A DNA stretch of 64,000 nucleotides, from positions 3,525 through 67,524 of the forward strand of contig JABJHR010000015.1 of NCBI GenBank assembly GCA_018661705.1, written 5' to 3'. Of this stretch, positions 4,877 to 57,339 are shown one piece after another. The notes under the pieces are model-generated. The model was given only the letters and a program-made list of their open reading frames with translations, was not told the origin of the DNA and ran no database searches. The translations under genes were made by a program, and so were the position numbers. The DNA is from Candidatus Woesearchaeota archaeon. GTDB lineage: Archaea; Nanobdellota; Nanobdellia; Woesearchaeales; DSVV01. Positions within the stretch are counted from its first letter, which is position 1. Every line of letters begins with the position of its first letter.

Positions 4877-4908
4877 TTTGTGGTTTATTTTTTTAATTTA
4901 ACACTTTA

Positions 4909-4998
4909 GCAAAAAATAATAACATGGCCAGATGAGGCGAAGCCGAGTAGGACTTTCATAGAAAGTCCGTCTGTGCCGGTGTTGTTATTGTTTTTTGC
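4909..4998 (+). repeat. Family A GC-rich palindromic intergenic repeat, copy A1
   Basis: Core GGCCAGatgaGGCGAAGCCGAGTAGGACTTTCatagAAAGTCCGTCTGTGCC. It is flanked by the inverted A/T arms gcaaaaaataataac and gttattgttttttgc. It is shared with the copies near 13996, 28489 and 57221. Confidence 0.6.
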
Positions 4999-5028
4999 AT
5001 CTTATTATCATTTTTTATAACAACATTA

Positions 5029-13995: not shown

Positions 13996-14094
13996 AAAAA
14001 AATAACAACAACCTTGGCACAGACAGACATTTTTTCGCTTTGCTCAAAAATATCCTACTCGGTTTCACCTCGCCTGGCCTTATTGTTATTTCTC
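13996..14094 (-). repeat. Family A GC-rich palindromic intergenic repeat, copy A4 (minus orientation)
   Basis: Reverse complement reads GGCCAGGCGAGGTGAAACCGAGTAGGATATTTTTGAGCAAAGCGAAAAAATGTCTGTCTGTGCC, with A-rich and T-rich inverted flanks. It abuts the stop of the 14086..14874 gene. Confidence 0.55.
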
Positions 14095-14874
14095 TCTAAT
14101 TAAATTTAAAAAATAAACTCTGTTGATTAAATACAACAAATATCCAAACGCAACACTACAGACAATTACAATCTTAGCAAAATTCTGCATAACTAGGATG
14201 TTTTGGCTTGTTTTAAACACAACCCCTGCTACAATGAAGTTAATCAAATAAACTACAATGTAAAATGCAATAAATGCAACTAAAAAGAATATATTAGGCA
14301 TATATGCAAAAGACTTTGATAATGATTTCAAACTAAAGCTAAAACTTTTTTTAATGCTTTTATGCTTGCAAAAACTGTAGTGGACTAAATTAACAAAAGG
14401 ATACAAGAAAAACATTAAAATTAATCCAGCTACTACAAAAATGCTTTGATGGTATTCTTGTTTTATTAAATAAGTAACTATCAATGAAATTGTAAAGTTT
14501 ATTATAATAATTATTAGAAATAATAATATGTTAAGACTCCAAAATTTTTTAAAATCAGACCATTGAAGAGGTTTTTCATTTAGATAACCAAAAACAATGT
14601 TCAGCAATTTTAATTTTGTTAGAGTATAAATAGCAGTCATTATTAATGCGTTGATTAAAACTACTATGGAAAATAAGATAATTGAGCTAAGTTCAAACCT
14701 AGTAAAAACAAAATTAGTCTGGATGCTGAATAACATTATTAATGCAATAAGTACAAGATCAACTAATATCATAAACAATATTTTGCTTGGTTTTGAGAAG
14801 AATAATTTTAATGATTGGAAAATAGTGGACTTATTGATTTTTTCTTTTATTGTAGCAAATTTACTCTTTTTCAT
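14086..14874 (-). CDS. Hypothetical polytopic membrane protein
   Basis: 262 aa with about six hydrophobic helices and no recognised motif. Confidence 0.45.
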   Translation of the reverse strand: MKKSKFATIKEKINKSTIFQSLKLFFSKPSKILFMILVDLVLIALIMLFSIQTNFVFTRFELSSIILFSIVVLINALIMTAIYTLTKLKLLNIVFGYLNEKPLQWSDFKKFWSLNILLFLIIIIINFTISLIVTYLIKQEYHQSIFVVAGLILMFFLYPFVNLVHYSFCKHKSIKKSFSFSLKSLSKSFAYMPNIFFLVAFIAFYIVVYLINFIVAGVVFKTSQNILVMQNFAKIVIVCSVAFGYLLYLINRVYFLNLIREK

Positions 14875-28478: not shown

Positions 28479-28488
28479 TTTTTTTAAT

Positions 28489-28571
28489 ACAAAAAACAAT
28501 AAAGGCCAGGCGAAGCGAAGCTGAGTAGGACTTTTGAAAAAAGTCCGTCTGTGCCATTATTGTTGTTTTTT
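28489..28571 (+). repeat. Family A GC-rich palindromic intergenic repeat, copy A2
   Basis: caaaaaacaataaa|GGCCAGGCGAAGCGAAGCTGAGTAGGACTTTTGaaaAAAGTCCGTCTGTGCC|attattgttgttttttg. Confidence 0.6.
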
Positions 28572-28695
28572 GTTATTCTACTGTATTCTGAAAATAAACA
28601 TTAGGTCCAAAGGACGTGTTTCCCGTGATTTTTTTCTTTCTAATTATAATAAAATCATCAAAACATTTAAATAACTAATAACAAATAAACAACTT

Positions 28696-36519: not shown

Positions 36520-36715
36520 TTTTTATATTTCACCTACTACCTAATATTGTATGTTAAATACAACTTAAAGCCTAGAGAACATATTGGAATTTTTAAAGGT
36601 TACTAAAATTTCAGGTGTTTTGCATGTTTTTGAGTTTGTATCTTAGGTTATTTTAACTATCATCCAAACACAAATACTAACAACATTTAAAAAGCCACAC
36701 CCTAATCTCTTTGAT

Positions 36716-44504: not shown

Positions 44505-44858
44505 CCTATAGTTTGAAGTTAGTAGTCTTAAGTTAATGGTTCTAAATTAGTGGTTTTAAGTTCGGAATTCTCTGTTGGGTTTTACATTCTCCAGTGATTA
44601 CCATTCAAAAACTATATGTTGCATAACAAAAATATTTATATATCAGAAGAAATTAAAATTATCAGGCATCTTGTGGTGGCTTACTTCTCACTACACAATA
44701 TGTTGTGTTTGTTGTTTTGTGTTATGACAATTGTGAAGTTTGCCAAGTCGAGTAATTAAAACTCATGATGATGTAATTTTTTAAATTTGAATTATCCAAA
44801 ATTAAAAAATTTGAAGAGATGTCAAGAACCACCATATTATTGTATGATGGAATTTTAA

Positions 44859-47333
44859 ATGTTTAAAAAGGGTGTTAACATGGAAGGAACTGTTGGAGAA
44901 ATATTACATATTAAAAAAAGAGACGGAGATTTAATGAATTTTGATCTTTCAAAGATTGCTGCTGCTATTTTTAGGGCAGCTAAAGAAGTTGGCGGTACAG
45001 ATCCAACGTTAGCAGATGAACTTGCAAAGGAAGTTTATTCTCATCTTAAAACAAAGGGGTTTCCAAATAATGCTCCTACAGTAGAAGAAATTCAGGATTC
45101 TATAGAAAAAGTTTTAATTGAAAAAGGGCATGCTCAAACTGCAAAAGCATTTATTCTTTATAGAGTTAAAAGGAAAAAACTTAGAGACGCAAAAACAGCA
45201 ATTGGTGTTAAAGATGATATCAAAATGACACTAAATGCCGTAAAAGTTCTAGAACGAAGATATTTACTTAAGGATAAGGATGGTAGAGTTATTGAAACTT
45301 GTGGTCAAATGTTTAGAAGGGTTGCTAGTTTTATTGCAGAAGCTGATAGAAATTATGGAGCGTCAGAAGAAAATGTAAAAGCTTGTGAAGGAGAATTTTA
45401 TGATTTAATGACAAAACTTGAGTTTTTACCAAATAGTCCTACATTTACTGGTGCAAATACTAAAGTTGGGCAATTAAGCGCTTGTTTTGTATTACCTATT
45501 GGGGATTCAATGGAAGAAATCTTTGAAGCAATTAAACAAACTGCATTAATTCACAAAAGTGGTGGTGGTACAGGATTTAGTTTTTCTCGTCTAAGACCTC
45601 ATAATGATCGTGTTTTATCTACAAAAGGGGTGGCATCTGGTCCTGTATCTTTTATGGCTGTGTTTGATGCTGCAACAGAAACAGTAAAACAAGGTGGTAC
45701 AAGAAGAGGAGCAAACATGGGGATCTTGAGAATTGATCATCCAGACATAATGGATTTTATTACAGCAAAAGAAAAAACAAATAGATTAAACAATTTTAAT
45801 ATTTCTATTGCCATTACAGATAAATTCATGGATGCTTTAGAAAAAGATGAAGAATATGAGTTGTTAAGTCCTAGAGATCAAACTGTGATAGATAAACTTA
45901 AAGCAAAAAATGTGTTTGAATTAATTGTAACTAAGGCTTGGGAAAATGGAGAACCAGGGATTATTTTTATTGATAAAATAAACAAATATAATCCTACTCC
46001 AGAAGTTGCTGAGATTGAAAGTACAAATCCTTGTGGAGAACAACCATTATTGCCTTTTGAGTCTTGTAATTTAGGTTCTATTAACCTTTCTACTACTCTT
46101 AAAGAAGAGAATGGAGAAACAAAAGTAGATTATGATAAACTTAAAAGAATTATTTATTCTGCAGTACATTTTCTTGATAATGTAATTGATATGAATAAAT
46201 TTCCTTTACTTCAAATTGAAGAAATGACTAGAGCTAATAGAAAAATAGGTCTTGGTGTTATGGGATTTGCTAACATGTTGTTAAGGTTGGGTGTTCGTTA
46301 TAATTCTGATGAAGGAATTAAAATTGCAGAAGAAGTTATGGGATTTGTTGATAGAGAATCAAAAAAAGCATCTCAGGAATTAGCTAAGAAAAGAGGGCCT
46401 TTCCCAAATTATAGTAAAAGTATTTACAAAGATGGGGAATTAATGAGAAATGCAACTACAACAACAATTGCTCCAACAGGGACATTAAGTATTCTTGCTA
46501 ATTGTTCTAGTGGTGTTGAACCATTATTTGCAATTTCTTACATTAGAAATATTATGGATAATACTGAACTTGTTGAAACAAACCCGGTGTTTTTAGATGT
46601 TGCAAAGAAAGAAGGTTTTTATTCTGAAGAATTACTAAAAAAAGTGGCAATGCAAGGTAGTATTCAAAATATGGAAGAAATTCCTGAAGAAATTAGAAAG
46701 CCGTTTGTAATTTCACACGACATTTCACCTGTTTGGCACACTAGGATGCAAGCTGCTTTCCAAAAGCATGTTGATAATGCAGTTTCAAAAACAGTTAATT
46801 TCCCAAATTCTGCAACAATTGAAGAAGTAAGAGAAGTTTATTTATTAGCTTACAAACTTGGTTGTAAAGGAGTAACTGTTTATAGGGATGGTAGTAGAGA
46901 TGAACAAGTTTTGAATATTGGTGTTGTTAATAAAGGAGATAAATCTAACCCTGTTGTTAAAGAAATAACTCCGGAAGTTATTCCAACTATAATACAAGAA
47001 ACAACAAATGATACTAGTGAAGTTAAAGAAGCAACAATTGATCCGACAGTTTCAAATGATCCTAACATTGTTGCAAATCTTCAAGCACAATCAACAGGAA
47101 ATGTCATTGATTCAAACATAACAGATTCAAATGTAATTCCTCCAACTGTAAATGTTTCAAACATAACAGCTAGTTCGGTAGCGGTTGATGCAACTAAAGA
47201 AGCTATTCTTAAGGCACAAGAAGCATTGCCAGACAAGAAAAAAATATACTGTCCAGAATGCAATGAAAAACTTACACAACAAGAAGGGTGTGTGATTTGT
47301 CCTAATTGTAGTTTTTCAGCCTGTCATATGTGA
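44859..47333 (+). CDS. nrdJ: Class II (adenosylcobalamin-dependent) ribonucleotide reductase NrdJ, with C-terminal low-complexity linker and zinc ribbon
   Basis: ATP cone (KRDGDLMNFDLSKI), catalytic-site Cys/Asn/Glu region (NPCGEQPLLPFESCNLGSINL), and C-terminal CPECN...CVICPNC. The probable true start is Met8 (44880). Confidence 0.85.
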   Translation: MFKKGVNMEGTVGEILHIKKRDGDLMNFDLSKIAAAIFRAAKEVGGTDPTLADELAKEVYSHLKTKGFPNNAPTVEEIQDSIEKVLIEKGHAQTAKAFILYRVKRKKLRDAKTAIGVKDDIKMTLNAVKVLERRYLLKDKDGRVIETCGQMFRRVASFIAEADRNYGASEENVKACEGEFYDLMTKLEFLPNSPTFTGANTKVGQLSACFVLPIGDSMEEIFEAIKQTALIHKSGGGTGFSFSRLRPHNDRVLSTKGVASGPVSFMAVFDAATETVKQGGTRRGANMGILRIDHPDIMDFITAKEKTNRLNNFNISIAITDKFMDALEKDEEYELLSPRDQTVIDKLKAKNVFELIVTKAWENGEPGIIFIDKINKYNPTPEVAEIESTNPCGEQPLLPFESCNLGSINLSTTLKEENGETKVDYDKLKRIIYSAVHFLDNVIDMNKFPLLQIEEMTRANRKIGLGVMGFANMLLRLGVRYNSDEGIKIAEEVMGFVDRESKKASQELAKKRGPFPNYSKSIYKDGELMRNATTTTIAPTGTLSILANCSSGVEPLFAISYIRNIMDNTELVETNPVFLDVAKKEGFYSEELLKKVAMQGSIQNMEEIPEEIRKPFVISHDISPVWHTRMQAAFQKHVDNAVSKTVNFPNSATIEEVREVYLLAYKLGCKGVTVYRDGSRDEQVLNIGVVNKGDKSNPVVKEITPEVIPTIIQETTNDTSEVKEATIDPTVSNDPNIVANLQAQSTGNVIDSNITDSNVIPPTVNVSNITASSVAVDATKEAILKAQEALPDKKKIYCPECNEKLTQQEGCVICPNCSFSACHM

Positions 47334-47343
47334 TTATAATAAG

Positions 47344-47416
47344 TTTGGAAGGTTATGGGTTTGGAAGGTTTGGAAGGATTTTATCTTCCTAACTTTCTAT
47401 ACTTTCCTAACCTTCA
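47344..47416. repeat. Family C repeat: a GGTTTGGAAGG tandem array opposed to an AACCTTC/CTTCCTAAC array, copy C1
   Basis: tttggaaggttatgggtttggaaggtttggaagga...tcttcctaactttctatactttcctaaccttc forms an imperfect hairpin built from roughly 10-bp units. Confidence 0.45.
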
Positions 47417-47432
47417 ATACATTTAAAAGAAA

Positions 47433-48077
47433 ATGGTACCAAGAAAATTTGGTTTTGTACATGTTTACACTGGTGATGGTAAAGGGAAAACTACTGCGGC
47501 TATGGGATTAGCATTGAGAGCAATTGGTCAAGGATTTAAGGTTTTTATTATCCAATTTCTTAAAGGTGGAGCGTATACTGGAGAATTTATCTCTATGAAG
47601 AATTTTCTCCCTAAAGAAAATAAAGAAATTGTACAATTTGGAGAAGGATGTGTTAAGGAACTTAAACAATTCAAATTACAAGGTTTTCAAAAAGGAGCAC
47701 GAAAAGAAAATTGTGAATATTTTGATTATATCAGAGAAGATATTGAATGTGGGAATTGTCGTGAATGTTTTTTAGATGATGAAAAACAAAAAAAATCATC
47801 GCGAGAAGCATTTGCTCTTGCAAGCGATATTCTTAGTAGTGAAAAATATGATCTTGTGGTATTAGATGAAATTAATAATGCAATAAGTCATAAATACATT
47901 TCAGTTAATGAAGTAATTGAATTAATTCAAAAAAAAGCACCGCGGATAGAATTGGTTTTAACTGGAAGGTGTGCACCACCAGAAATTATTCAGGTGGCAG
48001 ATTTAGTAACAGAAATGAAATGTATTAAACATTACTATGAAAATGGTGTGTTTGCAAGGAGAGGAATTGAATATTAA
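47433..48077 (+). CDS. cobO: Corrinoid adenosyltransferase (CobO/CobA-like)
   Basis: P-loop HVYTGDGKGKTTAA, conserved FIIQFLKGG and VLDEIN motifs, and a size of about 214 aa. Confidence 0.75.
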   Translation: MVPRKFGFVHVYTGDGKGKTTAAMGLALRAIGQGFKVFIIQFLKGGAYTGEFISMKNFLPKENKEIVQFGEGCVKELKQFKLQGFQKGARKENCEYFDYIREDIECGNCRECFLDDEKQKKSSREAFALASDILSSEKYDLVVLDEINNAISHKYISVNEVIELIQKKAPRIELVLTGRCAPPEIIQVADLVTEMKCIKHYYENGVFARRGIEY

Positions 48078-48256
48078 CAAAAATTTAAGGCAAAGTTAAG
48101 TCATCAACAATATTGCTTCGCTTCAATATGATAGACAACAAAGTATGTTAAAGCATTAAATTGTGAAAATGACAACTAATCGGTAAACACAATTAACTTA
48201 ACATTGCCAAAATTTAAAAATACTTAAGTATACCTTAAGTATATGGGGGACTTTAA

Positions 48257-50350
48257 ATGCCTGTTTTAAAGGTTAGTAAAAGAGACGGAAGCCTAGTTGT
48301 TTTTAATAAAGAAAAAATATCTGGTGCTATTTTCAATGCAGCGTATGCAGTAGGAGGCTCTGATAAAGATAGGGCTGATCACCTAGCAGATATTGTTGTT
48401 AAGAAAGTTAATGAAAAATATGGGGATGAAGTTCCAACGGTAGAAGATATTCAAGATTTAGTTGAAAGAGTTTTAATTGAAGAACATCATATTAAAACTG
48501 CTAAAGCATATATCCTATATCGTGAAAAAAAGACAAGATTAAGAGAACTAAAAAAATCCTTGGTTGGAACTTTTGTAGCTAAGAAACTTAGTTATAATGC
48601 ATTAAAAATATTGAAAGAAAGATATTTGATGAAGGATGAAAATGGAGCAATTGCTGAAACCCCTTTGGGTATGTTTCGTAGAGTAGCACATAATGTTGCA
48701 AAAGCAGATAAGATTTATAACGATTTTGATCCAAAAAAATCAGAAGAGATTTTTAATGAAGCAATGGATAATCTTTATTTCTTACCAAATTCTCCTACCT
48801 TAATGAATGCAGGAACACAAATGCAACAACTTAGTGCATGTTTTGTTCTTCCAATTGAAGATTCTATTGAGAGTATTTACATGGCACTGAGAAATGCTGC
48901 CATTATCCATCAAAGTGGTGGTGGAACAGGATTTAGTTTTTCTGGTTTAAGACCAAAAGGAGACATTATTGGTTCAACAAGAGGACCTAGTTCTGGGCCA
49001 AAATCCTTTATTGAATTGTTTGATAAGTCAACAGAAATAATAAAAAAAGGTGGTAGAAGAAGGGGCGCAAATATGGGTGTTCTTAGAGTTGATCATCCTG
49101 ATGTTTTAGATTTTATCAATGCAAAAGAAAATACAGAAGTATTAACAAATTTTAATCTTTCAGTTGGATTAACAAGTAAATTTATTCAGGCACTAAAGAG
49201 AGATAACATGTATGATCTTATTAACCCTAAAACGGGAGAGGTAGTTCGTAAATTACCTGCGAGGGAAGTTTTTGATTTAATTGCAACCATGGCTTGGAAA
49301 AATGGTGAACCAGGAATACTTTTCTTAGATACTATTAATAAAGAAAATCCCTTGGCAAGTTTGGGAGAGATAAAAACAACAAATCCTTGTGGAGAAGTTC
49401 CTTTGTTACCCTATGAATCATGTAATTTAGGATCTATTAACTTATATCACATGGTTGAAGGAAAAGAAGTTGATTATGAAAAGCTAAGAAAAACAGTTTG
49501 GTTAGCGATACATTTTCTTGATAATGTTATTGAAATGAATAAATACCCACTTAAAGAAATTGAAACTATTACTAAAGCAAATAGGAAGATTGGGCTTGGT
49601 GTAATGGGTTTTTCAGATATGCTTTATAGGTTAGGAATTAAATATGATAGCGAGGAGGGTTTAAAGTTTGCTGAAAAATTAATTGGATTTATTTATGAAG
49701 AAGCAAAAAAAGCATCAATAGAACTTGCAAAGCGAAGAGGAGTTTTTACAAATTGGAAAAAAAGTAAATATGTCGAAGAAGGAATTAAACTAAGAAATGG
49801 AACACTTCTTTCAATTGCACCAACCGGAACATTAAGTATGATTGCAGATTGTAGTGGTAGTATTGAACCAAATTTTGCCTTGTCTTACATTAAACGAGTT
49901 ATGGGTGGAGAAGAATTTTTATTTGTGAACAAACATTTTGCAGATGTTGCCAGAGAAAGAGGATTTTATTCAGAGGAATTAATGAAAAAAATTGCAAATA
50001 AAGGATCAATACAAAGTTTTAGGGAAATTCCTAAAGATGTTAGAGATGTTTTTGTTACTAGTCACGATATTTCTGCAGAATATCATGTTAGAATGCAGGC
50101 TGCATTTCAGAAACATGTTGATAATGCAGTTTCTAAAAGTGTAAATCTAAGATATACTGCACAAAAAGACGATATGGCTAACATTTTTAAATTAGCACAT
50201 GAGTTGGGTTGTAAAGGAATTACTGTATATAGGGATGGTAGTAGAGATAATCAAGTTTTGAATGTTGAGTATGATAAAAATTTATCACAAAAGCAAGAAA
50301 GAAGAATTGTTAAAAAACGTAGAGTTCCTAATAAATGTGAAACTTGTTGA
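48257..50350 (+). CDS. nrdJ: Class II (adenosylcobalamin-dependent) ribonucleotide reductase NrdJ, second paralog
   Basis: ATP cone (SKRDGSLVVFNKEKI), NPCGEVPLLPYESCNLGSINL, and a C-terminal CETC tail. It is colinear with the upstream nrdJ. Confidence 0.85.
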   Translation: MPVLKVSKRDGSLVVFNKEKISGAIFNAAYAVGGSDKDRADHLADIVVKKVNEKYGDEVPTVEDIQDLVERVLIEEHHIKTAKAYILYREKKTRLRELKKSLVGTFVAKKLSYNALKILKERYLMKDENGAIAETPLGMFRRVAHNVAKADKIYNDFDPKKSEEIFNEAMDNLYFLPNSPTLMNAGTQMQQLSACFVLPIEDSIESIYMALRNAAIIHQSGGGTGFSFSGLRPKGDIIGSTRGPSSGPKSFIELFDKSTEIIKKGGRRRGANMGVLRVDHPDVLDFINAKENTEVLTNFNLSVGLTSKFIQALKRDNMYDLINPKTGEVVRKLPAREVFDLIATMAWKNGEPGILFLDTINKENPLASLGEIKTTNPCGEVPLLPYESCNLGSINLYHMVEGKEVDYEKLRKTVWLAIHFLDNVIEMNKYPLKEIETITKANRKIGLGVMGFSDMLYRLGIKYDSEEGLKFAEKLIGFIYEEAKKASIELAKRRGVFTNWKKSKYVEEGIKLRNGTLLSIAPTGTLSMIADCSGSIEPNFALSYIKRVMGGEEFLFVNKHFADVARERGFYSEELMKKIANKGSIQSFREIPKDVRDVFVTSHDISAEYHVRMQAAFQKHVDNAVSKSVNLRYTAQKDDMANIFKLAHELGCKGITVYRDGSRDNQVLNVEYDKNLSQKQERRIVKKRRVPNKCETC

Positions 50351-50547
50351 TTTTCTTTCTGAGTTGTTTGTTCTGTTTTTTCTTAAAATACGTTTTTTTT
50401 TAATTTATACAGTATATTTATAGGGTCTAATCTGTTTGTTTAGAGTGATTTTAGGAGTATTTTTATAAGAAACTATATAAACAAGATATTATCTATATAT
50501 TAAGTTATATTAGTTAGTAGAATATATGTTAGATAGGTGTTAAAAAG

Positions 50548-51000
50548 ATGACAAACCCAGGTGAAAGTCCAGGTGGAAACGCCGGTGGTGGCTTTGGATC
50601 GAGCATTGGTGGATTATTTTCCCAAAAGAAATCTCCACAACAGCAAGTAGATTTAGAACTTGGTGGTGTTGTAAGGGATGTAACTAGGAGATTAAAGGTT
50701 TTAGAAGAAAGGCTTACAACAGATCGGAAAAATATTCAATTAAATCAACAAAATGTTCTTGCAGCTAGTAAAAAAGTTAATGTTGAAATTAAGAATACTT
50801 ATCTTGAAATTAATGAATTAAAGAAAGAATTATCTCTTATTAAAGAGCAAATTGCTATGCTGATGACTGCTTTGAAAGAAACAGCAAGTAAAGAAGATGT
50901 AAAAACAATGGAAAAATATGTTGATCTTTGGGAACCATTAAATTTTGTTACAAAAAGAGAAGTGGAATCTTTAATTAGAAGAATTATTAACGAGAAATAG
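50548..51000 (+). CDS. Hypothetical coiled-coil protein with Gly-rich N-terminus
   Basis: 150 aa. An N-terminal G/S-rich segment is followed by heptad-like coiled coil. Confidence 0.4.
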   Translation: MTNPGESPGGNAGGGFGSSIGGLFSQKKSPQQQVDLELGGVVRDVTRRLKVLEERLTTDRKNIQLNQQNVLAASKKVNVEIKNTYLEINELKKELSLIKEQIAMLMTALKETASKEDVKTMEKYVDLWEPLNFVTKREVESLIRRIINEK

Positions 51001-51034
51001 GATTAAGAAAAATAAAATAGCAGATAAGTAAAAA

Positions 51035-51778
51035 ATGGGATTTTTGAATAATATCATTGGAAAACCTTCAGGGCCTGGAGAACCTGCGCCAGCAACAAAA
51101 GTAGAAATGAAAGGCCCACCTACTGACAGAGTCATTGCAATGAGACAGCATGGCTTAAGTAATAATCAAATTATTCAGGCACTTCAAAATGAAGGCCATA
51201 ATTCAACTGAGATTTTGGATGCAATAAATCAAGCTGATTTAAAAGGAGGTGTTGAAATGTCACCAAATCAATCAGGACAACCTGTACCAGCACAAATGCC
51301 GGGACAACCGTCACAACCACCACAACAACCACCAGGAGCTTCTCCTGCGCAAGGCCCAGGACCAATGAGTCCACCAGGACAGCCTTTACCGCCAGGATTT
51401 GGTTCGCCTGCACCAGCAATGGGACAGGAAGCTAGAGAAGAGGGTCCAGCACTAGAAAGAATTGAAGAACTAGCAGAAGCTATTATTGATGAAAAGTGGA
51501 ATGAGATTGTCAAGAGCATTAATAAAATTGCTGAGTGGAAAGAACGGACAGATGCAAAAATTACTCAAATGGAACAAAAGTTTGAGGATTTAAAGCATAA
51601 TTTTGATACTTTACACAAAGGTGTCTTAGGGAAAATAGGAGACTATGACAGTACATTAACAAATATCAGTTCAGAAATTAAGGCAATGGATAAAGTGTTT
51701 CAAAAAGTATTGCCTGTTATGACAGAAAATGTTAATGAGCTTAGTAGGATAACACAAGACATGAAGAAAAAAGCTTAA
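51035..51778 (+). CDS. Hypothetical protein with small helical N-domain, P/Q-rich linker and C-terminal coiled coil
   Basis: A P/Q/G-rich linker (QPVPAQMPGQPSQPPQQPPGASPAQGPGPMSPPGQP) sits between an N-terminal module of about 70 aa and a helical region of about 110 aa. Confidence 0.4.
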   Translation: MGFLNNIIGKPSGPGEPAPATKVEMKGPPTDRVIAMRQHGLSNNQIIQALQNEGHNSTEILDAINQADLKGGVEMSPNQSGQPVPAQMPGQPSQPPQQPPGASPAQGPGPMSPPGQPLPPGFGSPAPAMGQEAREEGPALERIEELAEAIIDEKWNEIVKSINKIAEWKERTDAKITQMEQKFEDLKHNFDTLHKGVLGKIGDYDSTLTNISSEIKAMDKVFQKVLPVMTENVNELSRITQDMKKKA

Positions 51779-51897
51779 TGCTAATGCATTGCTTTTTAAT
51801 TTTTTTAATTCCTTGTCTTTTACATTATGCTTTTCATATATGTATTTTATTATAATTTATCAAGATTACAACTTACTAACTGTTGTGGGGTAATTAA

Positions 51898-52539
51898 ATG
51901 AATCTGTTGTGGCAAAGTTTTTGGTTTTTTATGGTTGTTCTTGTTTTAATTATTTTTTTCTACCATATTTGGTTTCTAAGAAATCCTAAGGTTAAACCTA
52001 CTAAAAAGGGATATGTCATAAGTCCTGCGTCTGGAAAAATCATACATATCATTAAATATAATCAGAACACAGCTAAAATTAAAAAAGGAAGATTTGGAAA
52101 AATAATGACCCTCACTAAAGATGTTTCTAAGAAAGGTTATTTAATTTGTATTGCAATGAATATCTTTAATGTGCATTTTCAACGTTCTCCTATTCCAGGG
52201 AATGTAAAAAAAGTTAATTACTTTAAAGGAAAATTAAGAAATATATTTCTTAATCCAGATGGGTTAAGATTTATTGATAATGAGAGAAATGAAATCTTAA
52301 TTGGGGCAAGATCAGAAAATAAGAATTTTAATGTTAAAATTATCCAAATTGCAGGAATGGCTGCAAGGCGAATTCATTGTTATGTTAAAAATAATCAAAA
52401 ACTCAAGACTACTGATTTATTAGGTGTTATTAAATTTGGTAGCATGGTTGTATTAGTTATACCTGATCATATTAATCTTATGGTTAAGGAAAATGAGAAA
52501 GTTCATGTTGGTAAAACAAAAATAGGGAAACTCTCATAG
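51898..52539 (+). CDS. psd: Phosphatidylserine (archaetidylserine) decarboxylase-like proenzyme, archaeal short type
   Basis: 213 aa with an N-terminal TM and a candidate G-S self-cleavage site (KFGSMVV). It is adjacent to a CDP-alcohol phosphatidyltransferase. Confidence 0.55.
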   Translation: MNLLWQSFWFFMVVLVLIIFFYHIWFLRNPKVKPTKKGYVISPASGKIIHIIKYNQNTAKIKKGRFGKIMTLTKDVSKKGYLICIAMNIFNVHFQRSPIPGNVKKVNYFKGKLRNIFLNPDGLRFIDNERNEILIGARSENKNFNVKIIQIAGMAARRIHCYVKNNQKLKTTDLLGVIKFGSMVVLVIPDHINLMVKENEKVHVGKTKIGKLS

Positions 52540-52563
52540 GTAAACTTTCATAGAGGTGAAAAG

Positions 52564-53100
52564 ATGAAATATTTTAATATACATAAATTACTGAAACTTG
52601 CCGATTTTGTTACTTTATTGAATGTTGTTTCTGGTGTTTTAGCAATTATGTTTGCTATTTCTGGAAATTTTAATTTAGCAGCAATATTTCTTATAGGGGC
52701 TGTTATGTTTGATGCTTTGGATGGCAGAGTTGCGAGAATGTTTTTCCATAAAACTTCAGAAAAACAAAAGGATTTTGGAAAACAATTAGATAGTCTGGCA
52801 GATGTTATTAGTTTTGGTGTTGCCCCAGCAATTATTGGTTATATGATGGGGTTTAGATCATGGTATTGGATAATTGTGTTATTGCTTTATGTTTGTTGCG
52901 GTGTTTTAAGATTAGCGAGGTTTAACATTACAAAATCACAAACTCTTTTTGAAGGACTTCCAATTACTGTTGGCGGTGTTATTATTGCTTTGTTGATATT
53001 TGTAGCAAATTTTCAAACTTGGCCATTGTTAATTATGCCTTATGTTTATTTAATCATGGCAATATTAATGATTTCATCAATTTCAATTAAGAAAATATAA
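52564..53100 (+). CDS. CDP-alcohol phosphatidyltransferase (archaetidylserine synthase-like)
   Basis: D-x2-D-G-x2-A-R-x(8-16)-G-x3-D-x3-D motif (DALDGRVARMFF...GKQLDSLADVISFG) in a multi-TM protein. Confidence 0.75.
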   Translation: MKYFNIHKLLKLADFVTLLNVVSGVLAIMFAISGNFNLAAIFLIGAVMFDALDGRVARMFFHKTSEKQKDFGKQLDSLADVISFGVAPAIIGYMMGFRSWYWIIVLLLYVCCGVLRLARFNITKSQTLFEGLPITVGGVIIALLIFVANFQTWPLLIMPYVYLIMAILMISSISIKKI

Positions 53101-53118
53101 TTAATAGGTGGTGTTAAT

Positions 53119-53583
53119 ATGATTCAAGAATTGATATATACAATGTTCACAAATAAAGTAGTTTTAAGTCTTATCTTTGTTTTTATTGCAGCGGAAATTA
53201 TTAAATTAATTACTTTTGCCTATAAACAAAAGTGTTTTTCCCCCTCTTGTTTAGTTAAGGGCGGTGGGATGCCAAGTACACACACATCATTGGTAAGCAC
53301 ATTAACATTTTCAGTGTTATTTAATTTTGGTTTTTCTATTCTATGGGTTGCGATTGCAGTTTTTTCCATAATTGTTGCAAGAGACGCATTTGGTGTTAGA
53401 AAACATGCTGGAGAACATGCAAAGTTATTGAACATTATGTTGCAAGACTCTAAGCTAAGAAAAAAATATGAAAATAAGTCTGGGAAAAAGCAAATGCAGG
53501 AAAGTATTGGTCATACGCCAATTGAAGTTTTTGCAGGCGTTATTCTTGGCTTAATAATTTCATTAATAATCTTCATTATTTAG
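53119..53583 (+). CDS. Divergent PAP2/DUF212-family membrane protein
   Basis: A GGMPSTHTS motif and four TM helices, resembling the acid phosphatase/vanadium haloperoxidase-related DUF212 family. Confidence 0.5.
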   Translation: MIQELIYTMFTNKVVLSLIFVFIAAEIIKLITFAYKQKCFSPSCLVKGGGMPSTHTSLVSTLTFSVLFNFGFSILWVAIAVFSIIVARDAFGVRKHAGEHAKLLNIMLQDSKLRKKYENKSGKKQMQESIGHTPIEVFAGVILGLIISLIIFII

Positions 53584-53593
53584 AGGTGTAAAA

Positions 53594-54142
53594 ATGATTT
53601 TGAAACTTATGCTACAAACATTATGGTTGTTTTTACCTGCTTTATTAGCAAATTTAACGCCCCCTTTAGTTAGAAATTATTTTAAATTTATGGCAAAACC
53701 AATTGATATGGGGCTAAAGTTTAGGGGGAAACGATTATTAGGAAATAATAAAACGATTAGAGGTATAGTTTGTGGTGTTATTGTGGGTATTCTCGTGGCA
53801 GGTATACAAAGATTACTTTATACCCTTGAAGCATTCCAATGGCTTAGTTTAATTGATTATTCTCAAACTTGTGTGCTTTTGCTTGGATTCTTATTAGGGT
53901 TTGGAGCATTATTTGGAGATGTTGTAGAAAGCTTTTTCAAAAGGCAATTTAATGTTAAACCAGGAAAACCATTTATTCCTTTTGACCAAATTGACTTTTT
54001 AGTTGGGGCGTGGTTGTTTTTATTATTTGTTTATGTTCCGTCTTGGCAAGTTATTGTAATCTTACTGGTTATGGGGATATTATTACATCTATTATCTAAT
54101 ATCATTGGTTATCTAATTGGTGTAAATAAAGAAATGTTTTAA
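53594..54142 (+). CDS. carS: CDP-archaeol synthase (CDP-2,3-bis-O-geranylgeranyl-sn-glycerol synthase)
   Basis: About 180 aa with five TM helices, a conserved GNNKTIRG loop and the C-terminal region typical of CarS (DUF46). Confidence 0.7.
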   Translation: MILKLMLQTLWLFLPALLANLTPPLVRNYFKFMAKPIDMGLKFRGKRLLGNNKTIRGIVCGVIVGILVAGIQRLLYTLEAFQWLSLIDYSQTCVLLLGFLLGFGALFGDVVESFFKRQFNVKPGKPFIPFDQIDFLVGAWLFLLFVYVPSWQVIVILLVMGILLHLLSNIIGYLIGVNKEMF

Positions 54143-54153
54143 TTTTATTATGA

Positions 54154-55740
54154 TTATTTTTTATTTCCTTTGCCTTTTTTGTTTTTTTTTGTTTTTTTAA
54201 TTGGTTTATTATTGATATTTTTAATTACTTTTTTCTTTGGTTTTATCTTAACTGCTTTTACAATTACTTTTTTAGTTTTTTCAACAACTCTTTTTACTGT
54301 TTTTTTAGGTTCTGTTGTTGTTTTGACTTTTTTAGAAAACTTTTCAACCTCATCAATATCCTTTTTTAAATTGTTAATTTTGGAACTTAGGTTTATTATT
54401 TCCTTGTTTATTTCATCTTTGCTTGACTTATCTTTTACTTCTTTACTTATCTTTGAGATTTGTGTTGTTATATTTGCAAGATCTTTTTCTTTCAAGGAAA
54501 TATGTGATAAAGCGTCTGTAGTTAATTCTAACTTTTCTTTTAATTTGTCTAAGTCTTTTTTACCTACAAATTCATCTAATTTACTGAGTTTTTTAGTTTC
54601 TTTTAAAAGATAACTTGTTCTTTCTTCTAATTCATCTATTTCTTTCTTTAAATTTTGGTATTTTGAAGTATTTGCTTCTAATAACTTTTCGACTTCTTTT
54701 TTTAAGACAATATTATTTTTAATTTTATCAAGGTCTTCTTTTACTTTCCCAAATTCGTTGTCAAGCTTATTAATTTCTTTCTTTGTTAAATCTTTTTTCC
54801 CTTCGGCTTTTTTAATCTTAAATTGAAGATTTTCAACAGAAAATTGTATGTCTTTGAATCTGTTTTCTGTTTTTTTAAGTTCATTTTCAAAGCTTTTCTT
54901 ATCAGTTACCTTTTCAAGAGCTTTTTTCATTTCTTCTATGTTTACAAGTGGTTTAATTGAATTAGAAAGTTTTAATATTGTACTGTTGAGTTCATTTGTT
55001 TCTGACCACACATTATTAATTTTTTTTGTTAATTCTTGTCTTTGTTCATCTATTTTTTTATTAGTTGTTTTTTCAATATTTTTTCTTGTTTTCTCAGTTT
55101 TTTCAAGTGATTTAATAGACTTGGATTGTTTTGATATCTTGTCATTAAGTCCATTTGTTTCTGACCAAACCCCGCTGATCTTTTTGTTCATTTCTTGTTT
55201 TTGTTTGTGTATTTCTTTATTTACTTCTTTTCTTGGAATAAAATTTCTCTCAACATCTTCGACTTCTACTCCAAAATTAAATAAATGGTCTAAACGTTTA
55301 TCTATTTCTTTTAAACTTCTATCTATTTTTAATGTAAATTTATTAAATTCTAACTTTTTTATGAATTTATTTTTTAAATCAGAAATTTCATTACGGAATG
55401 CAGTAACGTCATTCTTTAATCCTAATGCTTTTTTTAGTTCAGATCTTTTATATTTCTCTTTCTCTACATGTTTCATTAATTTTTTATTTAATTTGTTGCT
55501 AGACTTTACTTCTGAATCTATTCTTTTATTTATTTTGTTTGTAGTATTCTTAAGATCATCTTTTAAATCTTTTATTAGACTATTATGCTCCTTTCTAAGC
55601 TGAGTTACTTCTGCAAAAAGCTTTACATAGTCTTCTTTGCTTATGAATTTCTCATCTGAATTTTCTTTAAGTAGTTTCATATCTTTTTTTACATTAGAAA
55701 AAGCCCTAGTTACTCTTTTATCAAGTTTGTTAACATCCAT
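54154..55740 (-). CDS. Long coiled-coil protein with lysine-rich C-terminal tail
   Basis: 528 aa, almost entirely heptad-like K/E/L-rich coiled coil, with a terminal KKxK basic tail. Confidence 0.5.
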   Translation of the reverse strand: MDVNKLDKRVTRAFSNVKKDMKLLKENSDEKFISKEDYVKLFAEVTQLRKEHNSLIKDLKDDLKNTTNKINKRIDSEVKSSNKLNKKLMKHVEKEKYKRSELKKALGLKNDVTAFRNEISDLKNKFIKKLEFNKFTLKIDRSLKEIDKRLDHLFNFGVEVEDVERNFIPRKEVNKEIHKQKQEMNKKISGVWSETNGLNDKISKQSKSIKSLEKTEKTRKNIEKTTNKKIDEQRQELTKKINNVWSETNELNSTILKLSNSIKPLVNIEEMKKALEKVTDKKSFENELKKTENRFKDIQFSVENLQFKIKKAEGKKDLTKKEINKLDNEFGKVKEDLDKIKNNIVLKKEVEKLLEANTSKYQNLKKEIDELEERTSYLLKETKKLSKLDEFVGKKDLDKLKEKLELTTDALSHISLKEKDLANITTQISKISKEVKDKSSKDEINKEIINLSSKINNLKKDIDEVEKFSKKVKTTTEPKKTVKRVVEKTKKVIVKAVKIKPKKKVIKNINNKPIKKTKKNKKGKGNKK

Positions 55741-55761
55741 AATTACACCTCACTATTAAAA

Positions 55762-55847
55762 GTTTGAAAGGTTTGGAGGGTTTGAAGGGTTTGGAAGGTT
55801 TTAATAAACCTTTTTAACCTTTCATACCATTAGAACCTTTATAATCC
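55762..55847. repeat. Family C repeat: a GTTTGRARGG tandem array opposed to an AACCTTT array, copy C2
   Basis: gtttgaaaggtttggagggtttgaagggtttggaaggtttt...aaacctttttaacctttcataccattagaacctttataatcc. Confidence 0.45.
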
Positions 55848-55998
55848 TTTTATTTTCTGTTACTATAACTATAATATCTGCTTATTATATCTATTAATAT
55901 ATAAACTTTATTGTAATGTAGACGAGAAATTTGGAAATTAATTGTTGACTGGTGACGAAAAAGGGTTTTTTGTATGTTTGTTTAGATGTTTTAAAATT

Positions 55999-57177
55999 TT
56001 ACTCTTCCAATACTTTCAACGCAATTAACTCTTTCCCTTCAAATAGTTTTAAAGAAGCTCCACCACCTGTGCTGACATGGGTCATGTGTTTATCAAAACC
56101 AAATTTCTCTAATGCAGCTGCGCTGTCTCCACCACCAACAATTGTTGTTGCATTTGTTTCAGCCATTGCATCTGCAATTAGTTTTGTACCATCTGCAAAT
56201 TCTGGTTTTTCATACATGCCCATTGGTCCATTCCAAGAAATTGTTTCAGCTTGTTGAATTATAATTCTATATCTTTCTATTGTTTTTGGGCCAATGTCAA
56301 GCGCCATTTGATTATCTTGAATCTGATTAATATCTACTACCTCTGGTGTTGATTCTGGTGTTTCTGCAACAACTGCATCAATTGGTAAGGTTATTTTTGG
56401 ATTATTAAGGAATTCTTTTATTAGAAATTCATTATCTTCTGTAAATCCTTCTTTATCTATTTTTGTTTTTCCAATGTTATTTCCTGCAACTTTACAAAAT
56501 AAAAATCCTAATGAACCACCAAGAAGAATTTTATCAGCTGTTTTGAATAAATTTTGTATTGCACTAAGTTTATCTGCTTTTATCCCGCCAATAATTGAAA
56601 CAAATGGTGTTTTTGGATTTTCAATTGTACGTTTAATCATATCAAGTTCTTTTTTAATGAGTAATCCAACACATTTTTCTTCTACAAATTTTGGAACAGA
56701 AGTCATTGAAGCATGGTCACGATGACAATTACTAAATGCATCTTCAACAAATACATCCATGTCTTTTGCTAATAACTTACCAAATTCATCTCTTTCTTCT
56801 TGCAATTCAGATTTTTCATTAGGATTAAACCGTAAATTTTCTAACATGATTAAACAATTATCTGGATTATTTGCATCATGATTGCTTGTATTCCAATCAT
56901 CAATTTTTTTAATTGGCATGTCTATTAATTTACCTAATAATTCAGAAATTTTGTCTGTTTTTAAGTAAGGTTCATTATTTTTTGGTCTTCCAGCATGACA
57001 TGCAAAAATTACTTGTTTTGGCATTTGCTTAAGAATGAAATTTATTGTTGGTACTGTTAACTTTATTCTAAAATCGTTAGTTATCTCTCCTGTTTTCTCG
57101 TCTATTGGAACATTATAGTCAACTCTGATGAAAACTTTCTTATCTTTGAAGTCAATGTCTTCTACTGTTTTTAACAT
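55999..57177 (-). CDS. pgk: Phosphoglycerate kinase
   Basis: N-terminal VFIRVDYNVP, conserved GGGASLKLFEGKEL, and ATP-binding GGGDSAAA motifs. Confidence 0.9.
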   Translation of the reverse strand: MLKTVEDIDFKDKKVFIRVDYNVPIDEKTGEITNDFRIKLTVPTINFILKQMPKQVIFACHAGRPKNNEPYLKTDKISELLGKLIDMPIKKIDDWNTSNHDANNPDNCLIMLENLRFNPNEKSELQEERDEFGKLLAKDMDVFVEDAFSNCHRDHASMTSVPKFVEEKCVGLLIKKELDMIKRTIENPKTPFVSIIGGIKADKLSAIQNLFKTADKILLGGSLGFLFCKVAGNNIGKTKIDKEGFTEDNEFLIKEFLNNPKITLPIDAVVAETPESTPEVVDINQIQDNQMALDIGPKTIERYRIIIQQAETISWNGPMGMYEKPEFADGTKLIADAMAETNATTIVGGGDSAAALEKFGFDKHMTHVSTGGGASLKLFEGKELIALKVLEE

Positions 57178-57220: not shown

Positions 57221-57310
57221 CAAAATAACATCATGGCCAGGCGAGCCGTTAGGCGAGTAGGATATTTGCGTAGCAAATTTCCGTCTGTGCCGTTATTGTT
57301 GTTATTTTGT
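57221..57310 (+). repeat. Family A GC-rich palindromic intergenic repeat, copy A3
   Basis: acaaaataacatca|GGCCAGGCGAGCCGTTAGGCGAGTAGGATATTTGCgtaGCAAATTTCCGTCTGTGCC|gttattgttgttattttgt. Compensatory changes occur in the inner stem relative to A1 and A2. Confidence 0.6.
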
Positions 57311-57339
57311 ATGTCTATTACTAGTAATAATTAACAAAT

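Follow-up and report, generated by a model that had tools for sequence, protein, structure and literature searches.

The repetitive extragenic palindromic (REP) elements of bacteria, and the REPINs that consist of two inverted REP units, owe their mobility to RAYT transposases (Bertels & Rainey 2011, PMC3116915; Di Nocera et al. 2013, PMC3733652), and one end of the REP palindrome bears a conserved tetranucleotide, GTAG or CGTC (PMC3733652). Here we describe a repeat of related build, two copies of which (R1 and R2) lie in a 64,000-nt stretch of DNA, the window, from a Candidatus Woesearchaeota archaeon (NCBI GenBank assembly GCA_018661705.1, contig JABJHR010000015.1, positions 3,525 to 67,524 of the forward strand). 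Like REPINs and REP elements, it is an extragenic imperfect hairpin of ~80–100 nt that is dispersed at unrelated intergenic sites and present or absent between relatives; as with them, the hairpin counts on a single strand and is probably often transcribed within operons. It shares with miniature transposable elements with inverted repeats (MITEs; reviewed in PMC3184786) a small, non-coding, AT-rich and intergenic nature, insertion in either orientation, orthologous sites that are filled in one genome and empty in another, and terminal inverted repeats, which here extend across the whole element. With the palindrome-associated HUH substrates of the IS200/IS605 family (PMC6006769) it has in common a strand-specific hairpin and the lack of a target-site duplication. 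We hold with moderate confidence that R1 and R2 represent a non-autonomous, REPIN- or MITE-like palindromic element that spreads to new intergenic sites.

The limits of the two copies were set with covariance models, and both lie in the same orientation, with the G-rich arm first on the + strand:

47341–47422, + strand: element R1, 82 nt (97 bits with the first model, 88.7 bits with the second)
47343–47376: 5′ arm of R1, made of GTTTGGAAG units
47377–47384: loop of R1
47385–47420: degenerate complementary arm of R1
55760–55846, + strand: element R2, 87 nt (104.6 bits with the first model, 82.9 bits with the second)
55762–55801: 5′ arm of R2, made of four GTTTGRARG units
55802–55805: loop of R2
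55806–55845: complementary arm of R2

Each copy consists of 3–4 tandem 9-bp units GTTTGRARG followed by a degenerate reverse-complement arm, and forms an imperfect hairpin of 24–32 bp; R1 reads AAGTTTGGAAGGTTATGGGTTTGGAAGGTTTGGAAGG-ATTTTAT-CTTCCTAACTTTCTATACTTTCCTAACCTTCAATACAT and R2 reads AAGTTTGAAAGGTTTGGAGGGTTTGAAGGGTTTGGAAGGTTT-TAAT-AAACCTTTTTAACCTTTCATACCATTAGAACCTTTATAATC. The initial annotation had placed tandem arrays with a reverse-complement arm at these two sites, as we find, and had put the unit at ~10 bp; Tandem Repeats Finder instead gives a period of 9 bp for both arrays, with 4.1 copies in R1 (47343–47377) and 4.9 copies in R2 (55758–55801). One unit of R1 is irregular (GGTTATGG), and its second arm (CTTCCTAAC / AACCTTT) is a degenerate complement with an 18-nt super-period at 47386–47420, again according to Tandem Repeats Finder. 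The arrays are not CRISPR repeats, as was also noted then: the units are 9 bp long and contiguous, and the second arm is inverted. The description ‘satellite-like structured elements’ came near to the outcome, in which the arrays belong to a dispersed family of hairpin-forming repeats.

There are four occurrences of the double unit GTTTGRARGGTTTGRARG in the window, all within R1 or R2, against 0.00 expected from 100 shuffles. Folded as RNA, the + strand of R1 reaches −30.8 kcal/mol (z −4.2) and its − strand −20.5 kcal/mol, while the corresponding values for R2 are −38 kcal/mol (z −4.7) and −28.9 kcal/mol. When 6392 sliding 100-nt windows, taken from both strands, are ranked by fold stability, R2 comes 3rd and R1 about 10th, despite a GC content of only 31–33% in a window of ~30% GC. 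The excess of the double unit over shuffled sequence, the fold z-scores and these ranks together indicate that the arrays are real and beyond chance. Aligned end to end, R1 and R2 are identical in 84% of columns and have their termini in common (AAGTTTGRAAGG ... CCTTYAWWA); their consensus hairpin has 24 pairs, two of which are changed on both sides, six of which differ as G-C versus G-U, and none of which is broken. R1 and R2 are homologous copies of one repeat. A covariance model of the pair found no accepted further copy in the window, in a further ~14 kb of the source genome (L153, L155) or in the relatives’ loci. A weak match at 36588–36695 of the window (17–18 bits, E 0.1–0.4) was not accepted as a family member; this imperfect hairpin has its 5′ arm rich in G/T and its 3′ arm rich in C/A, and it occupies the spacer of a divergent gene pair, one with a TRAM domain and the other with a KH domain.

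Metagenome contigs were scanned with a pattern of two G units followed by AACCTTY, which returned 18 loci; four of these (GC 0.30–0.31) carry three clear members of the family, M3 to M5. The sixth, M6, was not retrieved by motif, having been met in flanking DNA fetched for the protein encoded next to M3.

L157:442–525: M3, upstream of a 235-aa gene (77 bits with the first model, 96 bits with the second)
L161:9525–9612, identical in L168: M4, between the archease and thyX genes
L173:3139–3221: M5, upstream of a ROK-family gene (Pfam)
L175:16718–16806: M6, adjoining a DUF371 gene, between divergent genes

The protein encoded beside M3 is identical to one in NCBI assembly GCA_018657385.1, which is named Woesearchaeota. 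M3 and M6 belong to one Woesearchaeota-named genome, distinct from that of the window, and the contigs of M4 and M5 carry no taxon assignment; the family is thus known from two Woesearchaeota-named marine genomes and two unassigned low-GC contigs. The initial annotation had reckoned with arrays that might be unique to two loci, a view that these four further members contradict. By tblastn, none of the M3–M5 loci is orthologous to the window loci, and the genes next to the six copies are functionally unrelated (cobO, a coiled-coil protein, the 235-aa protein of unknown function, thyX, ROK and DUF371). A second covariance model, built from all six copies, found nothing further in 235 kb. Against Rfam, the six-copy family gave only generic hairpin matches (miRNA precursor) at 17–25 bits, compared with gathering scores of 53–90, and neither a tRNA nor a tmRNA was found. 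In viral contigs the hairpin-type pattern had no match, and a scan for the double unit yielded 24 contigs with a single match each. Literature searches with the unit sequences returned primer matches only, and those for Woesearchaeota repeats and for 9-bp Bacteroidetes repeats returned no relevant paper.

The six copies are 82–89 nt long and share the termini AAGTTTGRAAGG and CCTTYAAWAC. Pairing joins the termini AAGTTTGGAAGG and CCTTCAAWAC(AT), and the inverted repeat spans the entire element, with arms of 9-nt sub-repeats in which GGTTTGGAA stands opposite TTCCTAACC and a stem of ~30 bp, interrupted in nearly all copies by one T·T mismatch per 9-nt unit. The consensus stem of the six copies has 32 pairs, with 91.7% of cells paired; sliding the partners by 1–3 columns lowers pairing to 34–66%. 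Five pairs are altered on both sides (7 cells), and the covariation score was matched by only 8 of 500 shuffles. On the strand that begins with the G-rich arm (the G-first strand), the six copies have 148 Watson–Crick cells, 24 G·T cells and not one A·C cell; the G·T cells are spread over 14 column pairs, as opposed to none for A·C (p = 1.2e-4), and this strand folds 4–13 kcal/mol more stably than its complement. Changes from G to A in the G arm are found only alongside a change from C to T opposite, the classic route through a wobble intermediate, which argues that the G-first strand in particular must fold. The hairpin has been kept through compensatory changes, with strictly polar G·T wobble on one strand. 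This polarity is independent of gene orientation, since the G-first strand is the mRNA sense strand in R1 and M4 and the antisense strand in R2, M3, M5 and M6.

We considered whether the polarity might stem from a replication-associated C-to-T bias, and rejected this source. At 4-fold degenerate sites the + strand of the window is G/T-rich throughout, whatever the orientation of the gene (GC skew 0.21, TA skew 0.13), a uniformity that suggests one direction of replication across the 64 kb, while bulk GC skew is dominated by gene orientation. The window fits such a bias; M3 and M6 are opposite to it relative to 4-fold-site skew.

The window encodes an archaeal signal-recognition-particle RNA and CDP-archaeol synthase, and a protein identical to that of its cobO gene is listed by NCBI under Candidatus Woesearchaeota. 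The window is identical to contig JABIPR010000002.1 (NCBI GCA_018698995.1) and to contigs with the sample prefix HAWL17. The 100% cluster of its cobO protein comprises one sequence on 47 contigs, and the next closest among 5.8 billion proteins is only 71% identical, so the population appears to be near-clonal. R1 is identical in the window, L001 and L002, R2 in the window, L003, L004 and L154, M3 in four assemblies and M4 in two. The hypervariability that the initial annotation had entertained is thus not seen, each window array being identical across 3–4 independent assemblies, and there is no polymorphism in unit number; as these populations are near-clonal, this comparison has low power.

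More distant relatives are informative about position. In the Woesearchaeota L124–L128 (cobO 67–69% identical), the order of reductase, cobO, reductase and lipid-synthesis genes is kept, and the reductase–cobO spacer of L124 and L128 is 53–56 bp long, AT-rich and without the element. Upstream of the orthologue of the 528-aa gene that follows R2, L124 has unrelated AGTGAA repeats where the window has R2. Conservation at these positions in related genomes, a check proposed at the outset, is accordingly not found: the arrays are not conserved in position, as the short, empty spacers and the AGTGAA repeats show. At the M3 site, both flanks are conserved in the relative L177 (GACCAAA and ATAGAAAyGAGGAAAATAAAATG), and between them are 15 AT-rich nt in L177 and ~97 nt, including the element, in L174. 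The element is therefore missing from two orthologous sites (those of R1 and M3) in relatives that keep the gene order, with clearly conserved flanks at one of them (M3). In these places it appears to supplant AT-rich promoter or leader sequence that was native to the spot, a short way before the start codon. The reductase gene of L124 (2732–6262) contains an intein with a LAGLIDADG domain, which the reductase gene of the window lacks.

Dispersal to non-orthologous sites, element-free orthologous spacers, conserved termini, occurrence in both orientations and a hairpin confined to one strand irrespective of transcription are the observations that lead us to favour a mobile palindrome. What moves would be a small, non-coding near-palindrome of 82–89 nt that is copied into new intergenic sites by machinery that it does not itself encode. 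Its hairpin would be maintained on one specific single strand, most simply because single-stranded DNA is recognised during mobilisation, as by HUH/Y1 transposases; selection acting only on the element’s own propagation would also fit a one-strand hairpin. The IS200/IS605 transposon family is widespread in archaea, and a strand-specific hairpin of the kind that its transposases use would explain G·T wobbles without A·C mismatches. The copies may then be carried passively in mRNAs, R2 in a 5′ leader and R1 in a co-directional spacer, with an incidental effect on the stability or translation of the mRNA of the gene 0–22 nt downstream. The element is a real, lineage-restricted, structured dispersed repeat; mobility, a single-stranded DNA intermediate and any effect on mRNA are what we infer from this pattern, and a host function is only a possibility. 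More tentatively still, and with some doubt, we suggest that this could be the first REPIN-like mobile family with a single-strand hairpin in DPANN archaea, marked by arms of 9-nt sub-repeats, one T·T mismatch per unit and a habit of landing before start codons.

Several observations weigh against mobility. Neither the ~40 window proteins (Pfam) nor the Pfam matches of neighbouring genes include a transposase or RAYT, and the loci fetched contain no insertion sequence and no parent with matching ends of the kind that MITEs have. The flanks of the six copies contain no direct repeat that would mark a target-site duplication, and comparison of the filled and empty M3 sites leaves at most an ambiguous AAT; MITEs differ further in that two inverted ends flank an unrelated core (PMC3184786), whereas here the whole element is one hairpin. 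No conserved target sequence flanks the six copies. The GTAG/CGTC tag of REP elements is absent from the ends (AAGTTTGR... and ...CCTTYAAWAC), with GTAG occurring only in the flank of M3 and inside the gene upstream of M4. Copy number looks low, at ~1 per 30–40 kb: two copies were seen in ~78 kb of the window’s genome and one extra in ~30 kb of unbiased flanks in the second genome, compared with tens to hundreds of REP/REPIN copies per genome. The sample of members is also biased towards the search pattern, as M3–M5 came from the motif scan. R1 and R2 have their G-first strand on the G/T-rich strand, and the + strands of L174 and L175 are also G/T-rich, yet M3 and M6 are on the − strand. Finally, the proximity to start codons in the spacers of R2, M3 and M6 could reflect a host function instead.

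Since it failed both the REP tag test and the MITE target-duplication test, we do not file the element as a member of either group. From REPINs and REP elements it differs also in its host, a DPANN archaeon rather than a bacterium, and in its arms of 9-nt tandem sub-repeats with periodic T·T mismatches in place of two inverted REP units. Elements of the IS200/IS605 type have distinct left-end and right-end hairpins and insert 3′ of a conserved 4–5-nt target; no such target is visible here, and our element lacks a uniform orientation relative to compositional skew. Short tandem repeats that are G-rich and intergenic have also been described, namely the GGGAATC arrays of Xanthomonas and Nostoc (PMC4692102) and the TAACTGA direct repeats of marine Beggiatoaceae (PMC4679880). 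These resemble the present arrays in their tandem intergenic units of 7–9 nt, strand-asymmetric G, many loci per genome and want of a settled function; unlike them, which are direct repeats without a complementary arm, each array here is one half of a hairpin with a fixed 3–4 units. The DPANN host, the tandem 9-mer arms and the periodic T·T mismatch set the element apart from what has been described.

All six copies are intergenic and end 0–22 nt before an annotated start codon, five of them between co-directional genes and M6 between divergent ones. In short spacers (R1, M4, M5) the element fills the gap and begins 4–7 nt after the upstream stop codon; in the longer spacers of R2 (258 nt) and M3 (159 nt), and also at M6, it lies near the downstream ATG. 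The surroundings of R1 and R2, for which our gene calls bear out the context first proposed (nrdJ and cobO around R1, the coiled-coil gene and pgk around R2), are the following:

44859–47333, + strand: ribonucleotide reductase large-subunit gene (ATP-cone, all-alpha and barrel domains), stop codon 7 nt before R1
47433–48077, + strand: cobO (ATP:corrinoid adenosyltransferase), ATG 10 nt after R1, no Shine–Dalgarno sequence visible
54154–55740, − strand: 528-aa gene without a Pfam domain (the ‘coiled-coil gene’), Shine–Dalgarno sequence GAGGTG, ATG 19 nt from the end of R2
55898–55909, − strand: AAAGTTTATATA, which matches the promoter consensus of the genome (transcription factor B recognition element, BRE, plus TATA box)
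55999–57177, − strand: pgk, stop codon 152 nt from R2, with CCCTTTTTCG after it on the − strand, plausibly an archaeal terminator of the oligo-T type

The reductase gene and cobO, two + strand genes, are 99 nt apart, and R1 fills this spacer. For R2 the spacer measures 258 nt and separates pgk from the 528-aa gene, both on the − strand; the element sits just beyond the Shine–Dalgarno sequence of the latter. If the promoter at 55898–55909 is used, transcription would start at about 55874 and R2 would lie inside a leader of ~134 nt; the relative L124 has a similar TATA box upstream of the orthologue of the 528-aa gene. The cobO genes of the relatives carry a TATA-like sequence near −31, a position that is occupied by R1 in the window. 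Many genes of the window appear to be leaderless, with a very regular AAAnTTTATATA promoter ~32 nt before the ATG (for example, the ATGs at 271, 2771, 5983, 38436, 59819 and 63561), and others have Shine–Dalgarno sequences of the AGGTGA type; with a simple gene caller, 30 of 55 window genes have a Shine–Dalgarno-like sequence.

REP hairpins in the malE–malF operon of E. coli, and 5′ stabiliser hairpins elsewhere, have a transcript-protecting role, and the strongest rival to a mobile palindrome is a host-selected mRNA hairpin, in a 5′ leader or between cistrons, that would shield the transcript against exonucleases or adjust how the downstream gene is translated. It draws its strength from the closeness of all six copies to a start codon, including R2 and M3, whose long spacers have the element at the end nearest the ATG, and it would also account for pairing kept by compensatory changes. 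Transcription of the hairpins is plausible as well: R2 is downstream of a consensus BRE/TATA sequence, and read-through is likely at R1, M4 and M5 because neither room for a promoter nor an oligo-T run is found between the upstream stop codon and the element. We nevertheless consider such a hairpin unlikely, mainly because four of the six copies have the weaker strand as the sense strand, with A·C mismatches and a fold that is 4–13 kcal/mol less stable. At M6, the sense strand of the 160-nt start-codon region, with the hairpin, reaches only −18.6 kcal/mol; the ribosome-binding region has a predicted accessibility that does not stand out (0.41–0.84), the orthologous genes of relatives lack the element and the adjacent genes are functionally unrelated. 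An anti-Shine–Dalgarno or thermosensor role was rejected, as the consensus AGGTGA is not complementary to CCTTCC units and ribosome-site accessibility is as just described. A G-quadruplex in the G arm was likewise set aside: with GG runs only, it could have no more than two tetrads, and it would face competition from pairing with the complementary arm. Iterated sites for a sequence-specific DNA- or RNA-binding protein that reads the tandem GGTTTGGAA units, close to the regulator-binding sites of the initial annotation, would suit the fixed 9-nt period, the elements’ position adjoining gene starts and a G-unit arm that is far better conserved than the other arm, with G-to-A changes only where compensated. 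The neighbours, however, share no function and form no common regulon, the copies lie in both orientations and are absent from the orthologous promoters and spacers of relatives, and no candidate regulator gene is linked throughout (a TrmB gene is near M3 only). The compensatory pattern indicates pairing rather than sequence read-out, and a 9-bp period does not hold sites in phase on B-DNA, so that we find this proposal without support at the window loci and quite improbable for the family.

The remaining alternatives fare worse. Local replication slippage with template switching would make the copies simple-sequence repeats that arose separately and are neither mobile nor functional; tandem repeats do make up the arms, and many unrelated bacteria have 9-mer arrays like these, a number of them with reverse-complement partners. 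Independent origin is nonetheless very unlikely, since copies at different loci and in different genomes share their termini, the units proper to each arm (GGTTTGGAA versus TTCCTAACC) and the T·T mismatch at regular intervals, and are of similar length, and unit number is invariant (R1, R2 and M3 in 3–4 assemblies each, M4 in two). Less credible still is a portable, orientation-independent archaeal promoter, with the purine-rich arm as a BRE-like element and the AT-rich loop as a TATA box. The loop centre does lie 52–64 nt from the ATG in R1, R2 and M3–M5, the element replaces AT-rich TATA-like sequence of the relatives at the R1 and M3 sites, and the sense-strand loop of R2 (AAAGGTTTATTAAAA) is close to the genome consensus AAAnTTTATATA. 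Against this, the loops of M3 (GTAAAAAC), M5 (GATTACAC) and M6 make poor TATA boxes, a TATA-like motif at a set distance is not consistently present, and R2 already has a consensus promoter upstream; the loop as a TATA box was rejected on this inconsistent match among members. We give equally little credence to a role as terminator for the gene upstream or to a free-standing gene for a small RNA (an H/ACA-like guide RNA, for instance); in their favour one could cite the start of R1, M4 and M5 4–7 nt after a stop codon and the ACA at the ends of R1 and M3. Archaeal termination depends on oligo-T tracts, and there is none after R1 (no run of at least five T), M3, M4 or M6; the sole one at R2, on the + strand, is antisense to both neighbours, the T5 tract of pgk itself lies ~150 nt from R2, and R2 and M6 have no co-directional upstream gene end nearby. 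An H/ACA guide RNA was rejected because the element has 1x1 mismatches only, with no pseudouridylation pocket and no k-turn. The small RNA gene is further disfavoured by the lack of an Rfam match above noise and, in the four antisense copies, of a TATA box ~30 nt upstream of the G-first strand.

Arrays of the unit GGTTTGRAR were also sampled more broadly, at loci L005–L123 from a genome-collection scan that did not return the window’s own genome and at loci L156–L172 from metagenomes. Among the matches listed, such tandem arrays are common in Bacteroidota (Chitinophagales, Saprospiraceae, Bacteroidales, Lentimicrobiaceae) and are also found in several other phyla, even at 60% GC. About 10% of the arrays listed precede reverse-complement arrays, giving long hairpins (L027, L012, L156, L162). 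Their orientation is non-random: a gene start within 45 nt with the C-rich strand in the mRNA leader was seen for 31 of the 124 arrays listed, and the opposite arrangement for 11 of 124. An open-frame test on the bacterial arrays was uninformative, the repeat unit being open in most reading frames. On a still wider reading, GGTTTGRAR/CYTYCAAACC arrays that abut start codons in many Bacteroidota may have a shared function related to translation or the ribosome.

Other features of the window deserve mention. A ~60-nt non-coding block (TTTATTGTAATGTAGACGAGAAA..GAAATTAATTGT..GGTGACGAAAAA) upstream of the 528-aa gene is conserved between the window (55905–55970) and L124 (16036–16095), even though cobO is only 67% identical and the flanking gene differs (pgk in the window, a mechanosensitive channel gene in L124). 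The block might represent a small RNA gene, or else a regulatory site beside the promoter, and Rfam gave only noise-level matches. A second, more strongly structured family of intergenic repeats has four copies, at 4901–5000 (+), 28481–28580 (+), 57221–57320 (+, between gap and pgk) and 14001–14100 (−). Its core, GGCCAGGCGAGGCGAAGCCGAGTAGGAC-loop-GTCCGTCTGTGCC, is set within AT-rich inverted arms; folds attain −31 to −40 kcal/mol per 100 nt, and five base pairs show compensatory changes among the four copies. With no Rfam match and no resemblance to tRNA, it looks like an undescribed structured RNA or mobile element. The first ribonucleotide reductase gene is preceded by a consensus TATA sequence (AAATATTTATATAT) near 44632 and by a leader of ~200 nt with a near-palindrome, ACACAATATGTTGTGT (44693–44708), which we take to resemble an NrdR box. 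Directly after the S-adenosylmethionine decarboxylase gene is a 14-bp tandem array of GTTTTAAGTTAGTG (3.7 copies, 44511–44562).

DPANN genomes are tiny and streamlined, and are thought to be poor in repetitive and mobile DNA. If the element has been gained at new intergenic sites, selfish DNA persists even in DPANN archaea; if the copies are only neutral passengers, the finding is an ordinary one. In practical terms, elements of this kind can cause assemblies to break, and they can be taken wrongly for regulatory RNAs. The G·T-only polarity is a signature of the strand that folds, and makes the mechanism of mobilisation, through single-stranded DNA or through RNA, open to test. In two orthologous comparisons the element stands in for a short AT-rich spacer before a gene, and it may thereby reshape gene expression. 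If true, such landing just upstream of start codons would let the element rewire the expression of housekeeping genes, such as cobO, thyX and a ROK kinase gene, in extremely reduced genomes.

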